32,513 nt of DNA, from positions 1-32,513 of the forward strand of contig CAMDBZ010000001.1 of the NCBI GenBank assembly GCA_945889565.1, read 5' to 3'. Of the stretch, positions 15,429 through 23,564 are shown piece after piece. The translations under genes and the position numbers were made by a program. Position 1 is the stretch's first letter; every line of letters begins with the position of its first letter. The notes beneath the pieces are model-generated. The model was not told the origin of the DNA, made no database searches, and saw only the letters and a list, made by a program, of their open reading frames with translations. This stretch comes from Thermoflexus hugenholtzii JAD2 (lineage in GTDB: Bacteria; Chloroflexota; Dehalococcoidia; UBA2979).

Positions 15429-15812
15429 CTAGGCCAGACTCAACCCTTCGGGAAGCAGCGCTATCTCGGTCGCTGCGAGGGCGAGCGCACCTACCGATAC
15501 CAGCGTCAGCCACCTCGCCTCCGCCGCTCGAAATCCATCGATCAGGCCGAACATTGCCCAGGCCCACAGAATGTTCCAACTCGCGATGAACAAGAGGTAA
15601 GTCGCAATCATGGGGTACACCCATAGCGGCGTCGGTCCACATGACTGGCCGTACTCGCAAGCCGACTGTTCGTAAGGGTCGATGCCGATCCCCGCCAGCA
15701 GCCGCTCATACGCCACCCAGGCGACGATGGATACCGCGCTCGCAGCTGCCACTCCAATCAGTCCGAGAGGATTCCGGAGCACACGTGTGAACTCACTCGC
15801 TGGAGGCCGCAT
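15429..15812 (-). CDS. small hydrophobic membrane protein (127 aa; about 3 TM segments), unknown function
   Basis: This is the C-terminal part of the 834-aa track ORF. ATG is at 15812, with an alternative GTG at 15851 that lies 2 nt after the EF-G2 stop. TM-like stretches: LGLIGVAAASAVSIVAWVAY, LWVYPMIATYLLFIASWNILWAWAMFGLI, LTLVSVGALALAATEIALL. G+C is locally much lower (31/60 at 15541-15600). Confidence 0.5.
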   Translation of the reverse strand: MRPPASEFTRVLRNPLGLIGVAAASAVSIVAWVAYERLLAGIGIDPYEQSACEYGQSCGPTPLWVYPMIATYLLFIASWNILWAWAMFGLIDGFRAAEARWLTLVSVGALALAATEIALLPEGLSLA

Positions 15813-15853
15813 CTCTCCAGATGGGCCTCCGCGCGGCTCGCCCTCGCTCACGA

Positions 15854-18157: not shown

Positions 18158-18547
18158 ATGATCGCCGCGTGGGTGCTGGGACACTCGTCGGCGCGGCCGG
18201 CGCGGGCGGTGCTGCTGGCGGGCGCAGCGTGGCTGGTCGCGGTGGCGCTGTTCGTCGTCGTGGGGATGGCCGCGTTCGTGCTGTCGGGCGTCGACGGCGG
18301 GACCGCGCGCGCGATCCTTGTGCTGTACCCGCTGTTCTTCAGCGCGTCGGCAGTGGCGGTGTGGCTGCTGTACGTGACGCTGTACTACGCGGGCTTCCGG
18401 CTGCGCGCCAGCTATCCGGGTCGACGCGACGCGCTTGCGGCGGCGCACCGGCGCGCGCTGCAGTGGACGGCGCTGCTGCTGTACGCGTACGCGCTGATCG
18501 CGCTGGTGGCGGCGGGCGTGCTGCTGGTGCTCGCAGCGCTGGGCTGA
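18158..18547 (+). CDS. small integral membrane protein (129 aa, about 4 TM segments), unknown function
   Basis: ATG 18158. The protein is strongly hydrophobic (AVLLAGAAWLVAVALFVVVGMAAFVL, ILVLYPLFFSASAVAVWLLYVTLYY, LLLYAYALIALVAAGVLLVLAAL) with short positively charged loops. Confidence 0.6.
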   Translation: MIAAWVLGHSSARPARAVLLAGAAWLVAVALFVVVGMAAFVLSGVDGGTARAILVLYPLFFSASAVAVWLLYVTLYYAGFRLRASYPGRRDALAAAHRRALQWTALLLYAYALIALVAAGVLLVLAALG

Positions 18548-18685: not shown

Positions 18686-20407
18686 CTAACTCGGGTCGCT
18701 GGGGCGCAGGTCGAGCACCTCGAGCTGGAGGGTGCCGCGCAGCGAGTCGCGGCGGAAGGGGTAGGCGAGGTCGGCGAGCTGGCCGTCGGGGACGGCGCGC
18801 TCCGCGGATCGGAAGGCGATCGCGCGCCAGGTGGCGGGGCCTTCCTTCAGCTTGAATTGCAGGTGCGCCTGGTCGGCGCCGAGCAGCTTGCTCTCGAGGA
18901 TGCGCACGCCGCGCGCGAGGAACGTGGGGGTGACGTTGCCGGGGCCGTGCGGCCCGACACGCTGGAGCCAGCGCAGCACGTCGCTGTTGACGGCGCGTAG
19001 CGGGAGCTCGGCGTCGATGGCGAGCTCGGGGATGAGCTGCTCGGCGGTGAGGTGACGCGCGGCGTCGGCGATGAGCGTGGCGCGCACCTCGGGCAGGCGC
19101 GCGGGGTCGAGCGAGAAGCCGGCCGCGGCGCGGTGGCCGCCGAAGCGCGCGAAGAGGTGCGCGTGGCGCTGCAAGAGCGCGGTGATGTCGAACACGGGGA
19201 GCGAGCGGCAGGAGGCGCGCCCCTCACCATCGCGCAGCTCCATGACGATAGCGGGGCGGTGGAACTGCTCGACGAGGCGCGAGGCGACGAGGCCGACGAT
19301 GCCCGCCGAGAGCTCGTCGGAGGCGACGACGAGCAGCGGGCCGGCGCGCTCCGCCTCGGTGAGCAGCGACGCGGCGAGCTCGCACGCGCGCGTGGTGTCG
19401 GCGCGACGGCGCTCGTTCAGCACCTCGAGGCGGGCGGCGAGCGCGGCGGCGGTGTCGGGGGAGTCGGTGAGCAGCAGGTCGAGCGCGAGGCGAGCGTGCT
19501 CCATGCGGCCGGCGGCATTGAGCCGCGGGCCGAGCGCCCAGCCGCACATCTCGACGTCGGCGTCGGCGAGGTCGACGCGCGCGACCGCGGCGAGCGCGCG
19601 CAGGCCGGGGCGGCGCGTGCGCGCGAGCGCGACGAGGCCGATACGCACGAGGTCGCGTGTCTCGCCGAGCAGCGGCGCGAGGTCGCAGATGCAGCCGAGC
19701 GCGGCGAGCGCCCGGTGCTCGTCCGGGTCGTAGGGCACGCCGAGGCGGTCGTACAGGTCGTGCACGACTTTGTAGGCGACGCCGACGGCGGCGGGCTCCG
19801 AGCCGTACTGGGAGCCGTCGAGCTTGGGGTTGACGATGGCGAGGGCGTCCGGCAGCACGTCCGGCGCGGTGTGGTGGTCGATGATGATGGCGTCCATGGC
19901 GAGCTCGTTGGCGAGCGAGATCTCGGCGACGGCGGAAGTGCCGCAGTCGGCGGTGACGAACACGGTGGCCCCGCGCGCGCGCAGCTCGCGGACGGCGGCG
20001 GCGTTGGGGCCGTAGCCCTCGCTGAAGCGGTCCGGGATGTAGGGCATGGGCAGGGCGCCGAGCGCGGCGAGGCCCTCGGTGAGCACGACGGTGGAGGTGA
20101 TGCCGTCGACGTCGAAGTCGCCGAAGACGGCGACGCGCTCGCCGGCGCGGCAGGCCTGCGCGAGACGGTCGACGGCGACGTCGAGGTTGGGCATGAGCGT
20201 GGCGGCGGTGAGCTCGCCCGGCGCGCCGAGGTAGTGCTCGCCCTCGGCGACGGAGCGCACGCCGCGGTGCGCGAGCAGCGTGGAGACGAGCGTGGGCCAC
20301 GGCGCGCCCTCGAACGCGGCGATGTCGCCGGGGGCGCGCAGGCGCCAGCGGCGGCCGGGGGAGCCGGGGAGCAGCAGGTCGGCGGCGGGCGCGGGGGCGG
20401 TGGTCAT
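18686..20407 (-). CDS. recJ: single-stranded-DNA-specific exonuclease RecJ
   Basis: DHH-family motifs are present (VFGDFDVDGITS, ADCGTS, IIIDHHT), together with the DHHA1 region (GGHRAAAGF) and a C-terminal OB-like domain. Confidence 0.93.
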   Translation of the reverse strand: MTTAPAPAADLLLPGSPGRRWRLRAPGDIAAFEGAPWPTLVSTLLAHRGVRSVAEGEHYLGAPGELTAATLMPNLDVAVDRLAQACRAGERVAVFGDFDVDGITSTVVLTEGLAALGALPMPYIPDRFSEGYGPNAAAVRELRARGATVFVTADCGTSAVAEISLANELAMDAIIIDHHTAPDVLPDALAIVNPKLDGSQYGSEPAAVGVAYKVVHDLYDRLGVPYDPDEHRALAALGCICDLAPLLGETRDLVRIGLVALARTRRPGLRALAAVARVDLADADVEMCGWALGPRLNAAGRMEHARLALDLLLTDSPDTAAALAARLEVLNERRRADTTRACELAASLLTEAERAGPLLVVASDELSAGIVGLVASRLVEQFHRPAIVMELRDGEGRASCRSLPVFDITALLQRHAHLFARFGGHRAAAGFSLDPARLPEVRATLIADAARHLTAEQLIPELAIDAELPLRAVNSDVLRWLQRVGPHGPGNVTPTFLARGVRILESKLLGADQAHLQFKLKEGPATWRAIAFRSAERAVPDGQLADLAYPFRRDSLRGTLQLEVLDLRPSDPS

Positions 20408-20476
20408 GGGCGTGCCTCGGGGGAGGTTGGGGGCATTGTCGGTGGTGGGGCGGGAGGGGGGAAGCGGCGTGAGACC

Positions 20477-21520
20477 CTACGGAGCGGACGAAGTCACCCA
20501 GCCTTCTCTACTCAGCCGCTCCCAAGCGATGCCAATCGCACGCTCGCCGAAGATTCGCCGCTTCCGCTCGTTCCAGCTGTGAACGGCGGCTACCACCTGG
20601 CCCAAATCGCGCCCGGTGTTACCCAGCTCATGCACTGCCCAATCAACCGTCGCAATCAGCTCCATTCCATGGGGAGTTTCAAACCCTTCAATGAGCCGAC
20701 TCACGCGCTCCAATCGATGAAGTGATTCCTCGTGCCCCTGTAGAAAATTGCTCGCTTCCTGGATGCCGTCAGGCAAAACCGCAATCTCAGCGCCGCGACT
20801 TCGATCGCCGTAACCTCGCGTGAAATGACCTTCAGTTGCCTGAAGGACGAAGTTCAGATTCTCGGCATACGGGCCGTACTTATCCTTAACGTAGTTGAGC
20901 TTCAGCTGCTCACCTGCCCTCTGCAGCAGGTACGCCAATTTCTGAATCTCGAGAAGAGTCAGTCGGTAGCCGATACCTTGGTACCGCTCCATTACCGCGA
21001 TCAGGATCGCACGTCCGGGCGTCATGTCCGGACGCTTCGTTCTGACCCTCATCTCATCGGCGACTGGGGCACCGTCGGGCTCGAAAAGCAGCACCTCGAC
21101 GCCGGGCAACGCCTCGAAAGCGCGTTCGATCCGCGGTCGAACTTCGCTCCAATCTAGGCCACCGTTCCCGCATCCGAGCGGAGGAACGGCCACTGACTTC
21201 AAGCCCAGTCGCCGAACGTCCCCGACGAGTGCCTGCAGCCCAGCTTCGATGTCCTCTAGGCGAGACTTGCCGCGCCAATGGCGTTTCGTCGGGAAGTTGA
21301 TGATGAAGCGGGGATGCTCGCCGAGCATCGGCACCACCAGCATCCTTCCGACCTCGACCTCGCCCGCACGGCACGCTCGCTCGTAGACCTTGTAGTTGCC
21401 GGGGAAAGCCTGTTTGAACTGTAGCGCGATGCCTTTACCCATCACACCGACGCAGTTAACAGTATTCACCAGCGCGTCGGCGTCGGCATCGAGTAGATTC
21501 CCTCGCATCAGGTCAATCAT
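20477..21520 (-). CDS. darG: DarG-type antitoxin: N-terminal macrodomain (ADP-ribosyl-DNA glycohydrolase) plus C-terminal toxin-binding domain
   Basis: Macrodomain motifs ALVNTVNCVGVMGKGIALQFK and PPLGCGNGGL. The C-terminal part of about 190 aa carries LLEIQKLAYLLQ...DKYGPY. The gene sits directly downstream of darT (15-nt gap). G+C is lower than in the flanks. Confidence 0.88.
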   Translation of the reverse strand: MIDLMRGNLLDADADALVNTVNCVGVMGKGIALQFKQAFPGNYKVYERACRAGEVEVGRMLVVPMLGEHPRFIINFPTKRHWRGKSRLEDIEAGLQALVGDVRRLGLKSVAVPPLGCGNGGLDWSEVRPRIERAFEALPGVEVLLFEPDGAPVADEMRVRTKRPDMTPGRAILIAVMERYQGIGYRLTLLEIQKLAYLLQRAGEQLKLNYVKDKYGPYAENLNFVLQATEGHFTRGYGDRSRGAEIAVLPDGIQEASNFLQGHEESLHRLERVSRLIEGFETPHGMELIATVDWAVHELGNTGRDLGQVVAAVHSWNERKRRIFGERAIGIAWERLSREGWVTSSAP

Positions 21521-21535
21521 GATAGCACCGATGTT

Positions 21536-22195
21536 CTAGTAATACCACTCCCGCTTCACGCGCACGGGGCGCGCGCGCCCGTTCTGCTCGGCCGCTAGCG
21601 CCGCCTGCACGTGACCAGCGACGTCGGGGTTCATGACTCCGATTGCCTCGATCGCGTCCCACGGCAGGAAACCGCGCGTAAGAAACTCGGCCTGCCGACG
21701 GCGTTTGCGATCCCCGTCTTCGACCGTGTCATTCCAGTAAGTTCTGGTCATCAACGGCCAATCGACCTTATCGAGATCCGCCGGGTCAGTGAAAAACTGT
21801 GTCGTCGCTACGATCGCGTGACCATCCGTGAAGACGAACCGCGCACCGGTCTGCTGGACCCCCACGAACGAACTAACGAGGTGAACTATGGTGTCCTGAA
21901 CACGACCGGGTACACGGCCGGACTTAATGGGAAGGAGCATGGGCGGCCGGACACAGAAGAACAGCGGGACGTAGTCGTGCAGACCACCACCTTGGCCGCA
22001 AGGCACGATCGTCTCAGCCCGCCGCTTCTGGACCTCGGCGTAGGCGATGCTGGTGTGGCGAATACCTCGGGCTGCCAGCCCAGCGTGACAAGTAAGGCCG
22101 CCGTCCTTCAGGATCGACGGCAGATTGCTCACGTCGGTGATGTGAATCAGGGGAACCTGGTTCGGCACTGGAAACGGTGGCGGCAAGGGCGACAC
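21536..22195 (-). CDS. darT: DarT-type DNA ADP-ribosyltransferase toxin (DUF4433 family)
   Basis: 219 aa. It aligns nearly end to end with Thermus aquaticus DarT as I recall it: PLIHITDVSNLPSIL, SIAYAEVQKRRA, GGLHDYVPLFFC.RPPML, IVHLVSS, FVFTDGHA, RRQAEFL (glutamate at the position of the catalytic Glu), REWYY C-terminus. The start at GTG 22195 is tentative. Confidence 0.9.
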   Translation of the reverse strand: MSPLPPPFPVPNQVPLIHITDVSNLPSILKDGGLTCHAGLAARGIRHTSIAYAEVQKRRAETIVPCGQGGGLHDYVPLFFCVRPPMLLPIKSGRVPGRVQDTIVHLVSSFVGVQQTGARFVFTDGHAIVATTQFFTDPADLDKVDWPLMTRTYWNDTVEDGDRKRRRQAEFLTRGFLPWDAIEAIGVMNPDVAGHVQAALAAEQNGRARPVRVKREWYY

Positions 22196-22286
22196 TCCCG
22201 AAACCTCTGGGCTACCCGCATCCTAGCCGACGACGCGGCAGTCCTGCACTTCCTCTCAACACCCGCAACTCTTGCGCAACCTGAAT

Positions 22287-23564
22287 CTACCCCTCCCACC
22301 GGCGGAAGATCAGGCTCGAGTTGTGGCCGCCGAAGCCGAGTGAGTTCGACATGGCCCAGTCGATGCGGAGGTCGCGGGGGCCTTCGGGGACGTAGTCGAG
22401 GTCGCAGTCGGGGTCGGGGATGATGAGGTTGCGCGTCTTGTGGATGCGCTGGTCGCGGATCGAGAGCACGGTGACCGCGGCCTCGATGCCGCCGCACGCG
22501 CCGAGGGTGTGGCCGACCATCGACTTCGTCGAGGACATCGGGATGCCGCGCGCGGCTTCGCCGAAGACGGTCTTCACGGACATCGTCTCGAACTTGTCGT
22601 TGAGCGGCGTGCTGGTGCCGTGGGGGTTGATGTAGTCGATGTCGCTGGCGGGGATGCCGGCCTTGCGCAGCGCGATGTTCATGGCGCGCGCAGCGCCCTC
22701 GCCGTGCTCGGACGGTTGCGTGACGTGGAAGGCATCGGCGGACTGCCCGTAGCTGACGAACTCGGCGAGGATGTTCGCGCCGCGCGCACGCGCGAACTCG
22801 AGGTCTTCGAGCACGAGCGTGGCGGCGCCTTCGCCGAGCACGAAGCCGTCGCGCTCGAGGTCGTACGGGCGGGAGGCGTGCTCGGGGTCGTCGTTGCGCT
22901 TCGTGGAGAGCGCGCGCGACGACGCGAAGGAGGCGATGCCCATGCGCGTGATGCAGGACTCCGCGCCGCCTGCGAGCATGGCGACGGCATCGCCGCGGCG
23001 GATCACCTCGAGGGCGGTGCCGAGGGCGTCGGCGCCGGAAGCGCAGGCGGAGACAGGGTTGTAGTTCGGGCCGCGCGCGCCGAACTGGATGGAGACCTGG
23101 CCCGCGGCCATGTCCGGGATGAACATCGGCACGAGGAAGGGGGAGACGCGGCCGGGGCCCTTCTCGAAGAGCACGTGGAACTGTTCCTCGAGCGTGGTGA
23201 GGCCGCCGATGCCGGAGCCGATCATCACGCCGATCTCGTCGCGGTGCGCGGGGATGTCGAGGCCGGCGTGCGCGATCGCTTCGCCCGAGGCGGCGATCGC
23301 GAGGTGCACGAAGCGGTCCATGCGGCGCGCTTCCTTGCGGTCGACGTACTGCAGTGCGTCGAAGCCCTGCACTTCCCCGGCGATCGTCGAGTCCAGATCG
23401 GTGGTATCGCAGAGCGTGATCGGGCGTATGCCGTTCGCGCCATCGAGCAGCGCGCTCCACGTTTGCTCGCGGCCGATGCCGACGCCGGTGACCATGCCAA
23501 TACCAGTGATGACGACGCGACGCCCCGTGTTGAAGCGGGCGCCGGCGTCATTCGCGAGTGTCAT
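22287..23564 (-). CDS. fabF: 3-oxoacyl-ACP synthase II (KAS II), downstream paralogue
   Basis: RRVVITGIGMVT, active-site Cys in VSACASG, His in NPHGTSTPLND and STKSMVGHTLGACG. ATG 23564 overlaps the stop of the upstream KAS gene (TGATG on the minus strand). Confidence 0.92.
   Translation of the reverse strand: MTLANDAGARFNTGRRVVITGIGMVTGVGIGREQTWSALLDGANGIRPITLCDTTDLDSTIAGEVQGFDALQYVDRKEARRMDRFVHLAIAASGEAIAHAGLDIPAHRDEIGVMIGSGIGGLTTLEEQFHVLFEKGPGRVSPFLVPMFIPDMAAGQVSIQFGARGPNYNPVSACASGADALGTALEVIRRGDAVAMLAGGAESCITRMGIASFASSRALSTKRNDDPEHASRPYDLERDGFVLGEGAATLVLEDLEFARARGANILAEFVSYGQSADAFHVTQPSEHGEGAARAMNIALRKAGIPASDIDYINPHGTSTPLNDKFETMSVKTVFGEAARGIPMSSTKSMVGHTLGACGGIEAAVTVLSIRDQRIHKTRNLIIPDPDCDLDYVPEGPRDLRIDWAMSNSLGFGGHNSSLIFRRWEG

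Follow-up and report, generated by a model that had tools for sequence, protein, structure and literature searches.

Between the second of two beta-ketoacyl-ACP synthase (KAS) genes and recJ, the 32,513-nt stretch of contig CAMDBZ010000001.1 analysed here (the window) carries two adjacent minus-strand genes, darT and darG, of low G+C content. This locus raises the question of what the pair encodes, how it came to lie between housekeeping genes, and whether its position next to recJ has any functional meaning. An earlier note on the sequence had proposed a horizontally acquired toxin–antitoxin (TA) or defence module of the DarT/DarG type. Our analysis sustains that proposal: the two-gene cassette is very probably an intact DarT/DarG TA module (type II/IV, DarTG2 class) that was acquired horizontally. 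This reading is supported on three grounds, namely membership of both proteins in curated equivalog families with intact catalytic residues, foreign base composition, and absence of the pair from the syntenic junction in eleven related lineages.

Identity of the DarT and DarG proteins

Both proteins scored above the curated equivalog cut-offs for DarT and DarG, and the PADLOC models PDLC02991 and PDLC02990 matched the adjacent genes, so that both components of a DarTG system are present, as the earlier note had held. The 219-aa product of darT (216 or 210 aa according to other gene callers), whose minus-strand open reading frame (ORF) lies where it was first described, matched Pfam PF14487 over profile positions 2–201 of 201 (E 3e-58, 197 bits vs. 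a cut-off of 22.5), the NCBIfam equivalog NF048013 (toxin_DarT) over positions 2–204 of 204 (228.4 bits vs. a cut-off of 150) and the PADLOC DarT model (8.5e-65). Residues 11–219 aligned with residues 7–210 of Thermus aquaticus DarT (PDB 7OMV; E 4e-39). The nearly end-to-end match to the Thermus protein put forward in the earlier note is therefore correct as regards coverage, but the identity in this alignment is just ~40%.

At the level of single residues, R59, M86, H126 and E170 of this DarT correspond to R51, M78, H119 and E160 of the Thermus enzyme in the 7OMV alignment. The E160 position is Ala in the 7OMV crystal construct, and the glutamate of the QAEFL motif aligns exactly there. Catalysis by DarT2 enzymes requires the ADP-ribosyltransferase (ART) glutamate E160, the base-coordinating H119, R51 and an oxocarbenium-stabilising Met (PMC11543638). 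Each of the motifs previously picked out was also found at its expected place: LIHITDVSNLPSIL at residue 16, GGLHDYVPLFFC at 70, FVFTDGHA at 120, QAEFL at 168 and REWYY at 215.

The 347-aa product of darG, likewise present as a minus-strand ORF, matched the NCBIfam equivalog NF048014 (antitoxin_DarG) over its whole profile (1–338 of 338; 453.6 bits vs. a cut-off of 250) and the PADLOC DarG model (1.5e-133). The N-terminal macrodomain read from the motifs NTVNCVGVMGKGIALQFK (residue 19) and PPLGCGNGGL (residue 113) is borne out by the position of both motifs and by a match to the Pfam Macro family. Further, residues 1–152 matched the macrodomains of Thermus DarG (PDB 5M31; 3e-53) and of Mycobacterium tuberculosis DarG (PDB 5M3I; 8e-51). 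The lysine of the FPTK motif (K79) aligns with that of the Thermus PTK motif in the 5M31 alignment; going by our own alignment count, we take the latter to be the catalytic K80.

Residues 186–336 of DarG matched the C-terminal domain of M. tuberculosis DarG in its complex with DarT (PDB 7YK3 chain B; E 3e-22). The motifs LLEIQKLAYLLQ (residue 189) and DKYGPY (residue 213), from which a resemblance to SocA/DUF4065-type antitoxin domains had been suggested, are in place, but a Pfam search of the C-terminal half (residues 173–347) returned no family, DUF4065/Panacea included, at E<=10. Of the Pfam families that the first reading had named, DarT and Macro were matched significantly and DUF4065 was not. 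A recent study links DUF4065 proteins to the C-terminal domain of DarG by remote homology, on a marginal match to 7YK3 (E 1e-3; PMC13621843, 2026), and the likeness seen here is plausibly one of remote homology, not of family membership.

The pair was assigned to the DarTG2 class because its antitoxin is a macrodomain protein and not a NADAR protein; Pfam and NCBIfam profile searches gave no NADAR match in the antitoxin. DarTG2 systems are defined by a macrodomain antitoxin and a thymidine target, DarTG1 systems by a NADAR antitoxin and a guanosine target (PMC11543638). DarTG1 (DarT1 with NADAR, e.g., that of E. coli C7) has a related ART-fold toxin and the same TA and phage-defence logic, whereas its toxin carries Asn at the position equivalent to H119 (PMC11543638), where the DarT studied here keeps His. 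Membership in DarTG1 was excluded by this His together with the macrodomain of DarG, and the pair is predicted to be thymidine-specific.

Comparison with the two structurally characterised systems places the pair within the family. The T. aquaticus pair (PDB 7OMV-7ON0; 5M31/5M3E) has the same two-gene architecture, a DarT that matches end to end with R51, M78, H119 and E160 kept, and a macrodomain in which the PTK lysine is kept; it differs in the modest identity of its DarT, and the pair described here belongs to a high-GC Chloroflexota host and is known from its genes. The M. tuberculosis pair (Rv0059/Rv0060; PDB 7YK3, 5M3I) resembles the present one in both domains of DarG, and both pairs are chromosomal and lie beside a DNA-metabolism gene, which in M. 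tuberculosis is dnaB. Its DarT, in contrast, is far more distant (E 6e-13 to 7YK3 chain A). M. tuberculosis DarTG is described as long-resident and used for growth control, with an essential DarG (PMC7689832; PMC12170906), whereas the cassette in the window looks recently acquired.

Base composition and limits of the insert

The segment 20477–22286 has a GC content of 0.604, compared to 0.732 in the rest of the window. Among 536 other segments of 1810 bp the lowest value was 0.692 (standard deviation, SD, 0.016), which leaves the module ~8 SD below the mean. Along a sliding profile the GC content falls from 0.70–0.78 to 0.56–0.62 across ~20500–22250, and the GC skew changes sign over the same interval. 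The third codon positions behave alike: their GC content (GC3) is 0.68 in darG and 0.74 in darT vs. 0.93–0.97 in six neighbouring genes, and their G–C skew is ~0 in both genes vs. −0.32 to −0.42 in the neighbours. The G+C counts given in the earlier note (31/60 at 20881–20940 and 51/60 at 19081–19140, within recJ) were exact, and the profile and codon analyses that it had proposed show a dip far beyond chance and a foreign GC3. Such an un-ameliorated GC3 points to a recent arrival of darTG.

The native genes of the window lie almost wholly on the minus strand and combine their high GC3 (0.93–0.97) with a strong third-position bias of C over G, as a result of which the plus strand has a positive GC skew throughout, bar two foreign patches. 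The second of these patches is a minus-strand gene at 15429–15851, directly after the EF-G-like gene, which encodes a predicted membrane protein of 140 aa. It has a GC content of 0.63 and a GC3 of 0.70, and the skew of the profile is reversed over it; the gene also occurs in locus L024, from the same population, and has no homologue in seven related loci.

The limits of the insert were set by nucleotide comparison with L049, a related locus whose RecJ is 84% identical. On the KAS side, homology runs to window position 22288, inside the stop codon, and it restarts at 20466, 59 nt upstream of the recJ ATG, which bounds the insert at ~20467–22287 (Table 1). Within these limits lie the darT leader, darT, a 15-nt spacer, darG and a tail of ~10 nt, and nothing else. 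An AGAGG sequence is located 8 nt upstream of the GTG start of darT, and the length of the spacer is consistent with a single operon, possibly with translational coupling. On the recJ side, the native leader opens a stretch of 270 nt that aligns with L049 at 88% identity overall, and the two loci are nearly identical in the ~45 nt that immediately precede the recJ ATG. The distance from the darG stop to this ATG is 69 nt, and no terminator-like site lies in between. On the opposite side, the second KAS gene is intact to its stop codon, at which the insertion boundary falls, and its C-terminus (...SLIFRRWEG) is kept in relatives.

Pfam assignments agree with the co-directional gene array that had been reported around the pair (acpS-nnr-fabD-KAS-KAS, darT-darG, recJ): AcpS, an NAD(P)HX repair protein (NNR; YjeF_N and Carb_kinase domains), a FabD-like acyltransferase, two KAS, darT-darG, RecJ and an EF-G-like GTPase. 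A plus-strand ORF of 129 aa (18158–18547) with no Pfam match on record lies between recJ and the EF-G-like gene; ORFs similar in size and position were called in L024 and L049, and it may be a conserved small gene.

An assembly chimera was ruled out as the source of this arrangement. Records of the exact DarG protein come from seven contigs. Six of these, all other than the contig of the window and from six samples, were compared as DNA and were 100% identical to the window over the compared 1.84–1.90 kb; wherever one of them reaches a flank, KAS precedes darT or recJ follows darG. Owing to this complete identity, there is no within-population variation from which selection could be read.

Dedicated scans gave the same picture as the earlier note, in which no integrase, tRNA or flanking direct repeats had been found. 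No tRNA was detected in the whole window, and a search for flanking direct or inverted repeats and target-site duplications returned just short, low-identity chance matches around the insert. There was no integrase or transposase among the genes called in the window between ~12.5 and ~29.5 kb (gene calls with Pfam, L024 and L025), and when the window was searched by tblastn, the region downstream of darG held no leftover copy of the KAS 3' end. The insert accordingly does not qualify as a classical genomic island or integrative element, there being no tRNA, no mobility gene within ~8 kb, no meaningful flanking repeats and, in contrast to L049, no KAS remnant. Possible routes of entry include recombination through the conserved flanks, or an older site-specific event whose traces are gone.

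As to regulatory signals, the palindrome TTGCGCAA is located where it was first reported, in the 91-nt spacer upstream of darT, but the autoregulatory operator role proposed for it was rejected. The window contains 351 perfect 8-mer palindromes, ~1 per 91 nt, so that one is expected in a 91-nt spacer; TTGCGCAA itself occurs once, and neither it nor any shared palindrome was found in 30 distinct upstream regions of related darT genes. A scan for sigma-70 promoters gave no promoter-like site, with the proviso that Chloroflexota promoters may differ, and the sole terminator-like site in a scan for intrinsic terminators was on the wrong strand, inside darG. Rfam gave nothing at the gathering threshold in the window, nor at E<=1 in the module.

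The KAS–recJ junction and the relatives of the cassette

Related loci were collected by a RecJ scan of a genome collection, a protein collection and contig look-ups, which together made the junction readable in twelve lineages, that of the window included; a metagenome scan with RecJ gave 15 loci and no new close junctions. The RecJ scan places the window among uncultured Chloroflexota, the relatives being recorded as Dehalococcoidia or Chloroflexi bacterium. KAS and recJ adjoin in all eleven related lineages, most of which show more of the acpS-nnr-fabD-KAS-KAS-recJ-EF-G array, and darTG was at the junction in none of the eleven. Three of these loci (L001–L003; RecJ 66–68% identical) keep all or most of the AcpS-NNR-FabD-KAS-KAS-RecJ-EF-G order, and no DarT or DarG was found within ~20 kb in them. 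This synteny comparison, which had been suggested as a check on the insertion, set the boundaries described above and shows that the pair is not shared at native GC by the relatives compared.

What occupies the junction differs from lineage to lineage (Table 1); for the contigs of P0123 (RecJ 93% identical) and P0141 it was read from gene calls only. In L002, the toxin matched the PIN family (PF01850, 6e-07) and its partner the Phd/YefM family (PF02604, 6e-10; TIGR01552). The cargo of L049 includes a HigA-family antitoxin (TIGR02607, 75 bits vs. a cut-off of 47.7) adjoined by a HigB-like protein of 99 aa, whose match to PF05015 is full-length but sub-threshold (E 2e-4), together with a truncated radical-SAM gene and a 215-aa ORF without a meaningful family match. 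The KAS–recJ junction is thus a variable cargo site with at least eight alternative contents, of which three (DarTG, Phd/PIN and HigBA-like) are unrelated TA pairs. In L051, both KAS genes (2254–4386) were called in shortened form, at 292 and 274 aa, and an antisense ORF overlaps them, which suggests either frameshift errors in the assembly or pseudogenes.

Table 1. Features of the darTG insert and its flanks (window coordinates unless another locus is given) and contents of the KAS–recJ junction.
Feature	Position	Strand	Description
Inserted cassette	~20467..22287	−	1,821 bp, ~94% coding
darT	21536..22195	−	Predicted single-stranded DNA thymidine ADP-ribosyltransferase toxin, DarT2 class; 219 aa, GTG start
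Catalytic Glu170 codon of darT	21686-21688	−	GAG
darT leader	22196..22286	−	91 nt, part of insert
Palindrome TTGCGCAA	22272-22279		In 91-nt darT leader
darT-darG spacer	21521..21535	−	15 nt
darG	20477..21520	−	Antitoxin, predicted DNA ADP-ribosyl glycohydrolase; 347 aa
DarG N-terminal macrodomain	21065..21520	−	Residues 1-152; Pfam Macro PF01661, 6e-24
DarG Lys79 codon	21284-21286	−	
DarG C-terminal helical domain	20513..20965	−	Residues 186-336; predicted DarT-binding, inhibitory domain
Native recJ leader	20408..20466	−	C-rich, outside insert, conserved with relatives
Second KAS gene	22287..23564	−	Upstream flank; Pfam ketoacyl-synt N- and C-terminal domains
recJ	18686..20407	−	Downstream flank, native high-GC; Pfam DHH, DHHA1, RecJ_OB; GC3 0.97
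Junction, window population			DarT-DarG
Junction, L003, L052, L133, L135			Empty (0-130 bp)
Junction, contig of P0123 (RecJ 93%)			349-aa opposite-strand ORF, no Pfam match on record
Junction, L049 and L050 (RecJ 84%)	L049:3107-5938		~2.8 kb mixed cargo
Junction, L051	L051:4386-6000		~1.6 kb, no recognisable gene
Junction, L001	L001:9478-9966		162-aa ORF, no Pfam or NCBIfam match
Junction, L002	L002:9166-9848	Opposite to recJ	PIN-domain (VapC-like) toxin overlapping Phd/YefM antitoxin
Junction, L134	L134:2416-4204		Three genes (unknown, glyoxalase-like, YjbR)
Junction, contig of P0141			Trypsin-like protease

The L049 cargo also contains a 62-nt copy of the KAS 3' end (...GLGGHNSSLVFRRWEG*; L049:4837-4898, and L050:~2050-2110). 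In L049 it lies ~1.8 kb downstream of the real KAS stop, and it is 85% identical to that locus's own KAS end and 89% identical to the KAS end of the window. This copy resembles a scar left at the KAS 3' end by some earlier insertion or recombination event. A bolder idea would make the junction a dedicated, integrase-free cargo-exchange site that favours TA or defence cassettes, works through the KAS 3' end and is read through into recJ. The 62-nt remnant hints at such a mechanism, and we consider the idea as a whole improbable. Defence hotspots between core genes offer a parallel, in that a fixed junction carries different small cargos in each lineage, three unrelated TA pairs among them. The KAS–recJ junction differs from them in the small size of its cargo (0.5–2.9 kb), in that no integrase was seen, and in that the cargo, across the twelve lineages sampled, is not exclusively defence, as the trypsin-like protease and the glyoxalase/YjbR set illustrate.

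The same comparison bears on a different origin, in which darTG stood at the junction in the common ancestor and was lost in the relatives. TA loci are often lost, and the junction of the lineage with an 88% identical RecJ is unseen, both of which would leave room for it. In contrast, a GC3 of 0.68–0.74 against 0.93–0.97, combined with a reversed skew, cannot be reconciled with a long stay in this genome; in four relatives the site is cleanly empty (~0–130 bp), and seven carry different cargo; and the nearest homologues of both proteins are in mobile contexts, not in sister lineages. Both the composition and the empty sites led us to reject ancestral presence followed by loss, which we regard as extremely improbable.

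Those mobile contexts emerged from a search for relatives of the two proteins, which yielded at least 8,000 DarG relatives at E<=1e-20. The nearest non-self DarG was 73% identical and the nearest DarT 61%. Genes for the small and the large terminase subunit and two tiny ORFs immediately precede the gene for the 73% DarG and that for its DarT (L030:481-5111, L031, L053), and the contig is listed as viral in IMG/VR (IMGVR_UViG_3300014205_007818); this DarG is therefore carried by a phage or phage-like element. A 69% identical DarG lies amid three integrase genes, a GmrSD_C-like gene, DDE transposases and RadC. Of the 80 IMG/VR loci with a DarG relative, 40 have it in full length and 34 have DarT immediately upstream; the order of toxin then antitoxin with a short gap holds in all 34 viral loci with both genes. 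Relatives of DarT were also present in 80 plasmid records and in the Thermus phage phiMa. DarT was markedly more diverged than DarG, at 53–55% identity in loci where DarG was 69–72% identical (window vs. L030 and L033).

In the relatives, darTG has a GC content of ~0.60–0.61 within contigs of 0.67–0.69, from which it follows that the cassette lineage brings its own composition. The mobile relatives and this composition support a recent horizontal arrival from the mobile pool.

Function of the pair and meaning of its position

The mechanism of the pair is taken here from that of its family. DarT2 enzymes ADP-ribosylate thymidine in single-stranded DNA, DarG undoes the modification, and DarTG systems guard against phages (PMC11543638; PMC5179494); DarG works enzymatically and also by binding DarT (PMC8832971; PMC13621843). 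By analogy, DarT would use NAD+ to mono-ADP-ribosylate thymidine bases of single-stranded DNA at a short sequence motif, and this modification would block or stall replication. The macrodomain of DarG would strip the ADP-ribose off the DNA, while its C-terminal helical domain would bind and inhibit DarT. Phage infection would then upset the balance, free DarT would modify phage and host DNA, and the infection would be aborted (summarised in PMC11543638). The two genes would form one operon with the toxin first and a 15-nt gap, and may be transcribed by read-through from the KAS genes and on into recJ.

A functional DarTG could also persist in the cell as selfish addiction and nothing more, i.e., since its loss kills the cell, with no phage-defence or physiological benefit. 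We consider this rather unlikely, while noting several observations in its favour. Other TA pairs occupy the same junction in relatives (Phd/PIN in L002, HigA with a HigB-like protein in L049), as selfish cassettes would; no other defence genes were seen within ~8 kb; and the cassette is compact and without partner genes. Against it, the DarTG2 systems that have been tested protect against phage (summarised in PMC11543638), and a role in phage–phage or phage–host conflict would suit the closest relative, which a viral contig carries. Addiction and defence roles are not, however, mutually exclusive, and sequence would not separate them.

The position next to recJ invites a further reading, according to which DarTG was co-opted for the control of replication or repair and is co-expressed with a RecJ that processes single-strand gaps bearing ADP-ribose. 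M. tuberculosis, in which DarTG exerts endogenous replication control, would offer a parallel. RecJ is a member of the RecF pathway. E. coli repairs DarT lesions by recombination through this pathway and by nucleotide excision repair (PMC7003065), and M. tuberculosis DarTG serves endogenous growth control (PMC12170906); at the locus itself, darG and recJ are on the same strand, 69 nt apart and with no terminator-like site, so that read-through is possible. The repair study, carried out in enteropathogenic E. coli, makes no mention of RecJ, though (PMC7003065), and no RecJ homologue was found near DarG in any of the 80 IMG/VR loci or around either of the two closest relatives. Again, eleven relatives have either unrelated cargo or nothing at the KAS–recJ junction, and the un-ameliorated GC3 points to a recent arrival. 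Functional coupling is thus highly unlikely in our judgement, and the adjacency to recJ is an accident of the position of the insertion site. The caution in the earlier note that it may be coincidental was well placed, given the unrelated cargo at the junction elsewhere and the lack of RecJ near DarG in relatives.

Several points weigh against the interpretation of the cassette as a functional, horizontally acquired DarTG2 module. Neither a promoter-like site nor a terminator nor a conserved operator was found for darTG, and its route of arrival is not explained by any integrase, tRNA or target-site duplication detected in the gene calls and scans. Every functional claim about the pair derives from homology; with ~40% identity to Thermus DarT and a nearest relative at 61%, the target motif of DarT is not predictable. 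In the comparison of junctions, the lineage with a 93% identical RecJ (P0123) is represented by gene calls, and the contig of the closest lineage (L004/L034, RecJ 88% identical) starts inside recJ, so that its junction is out of view.

With these points taken into account, the horizontally acquired module described at the outset is an ordinary new DarTG2 pair of a well-known family, from an uncultured high-GC Chloroflexota lineage, and one that would already be named by NCBIfam/PGAP, PADLOC and other standard pipelines. A diverged DarT2 could be of interest to groups that develop DarT2 for DNA editing (PMC13368585), and nothing here hints at unusual properties. Should the junction be a cargo-exchange site with read-through into recJ, the activity of DarT and the supply of RecJ would be transcriptionally linked. 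What is mildly new here is confined to the variable KAS–recJ junction itself, which gathers different small cassettes, three TA families among them, without visible mobility genes. The cassette in the window offers a clean natural example of a minimal TA cassette of 1.8 kb, with boundaries at the nucleotide level, no mobility genes and a phage-borne closest relative, and the junction could serve in studies of the movement of TA and defence cassettes in the absence of an integrase.

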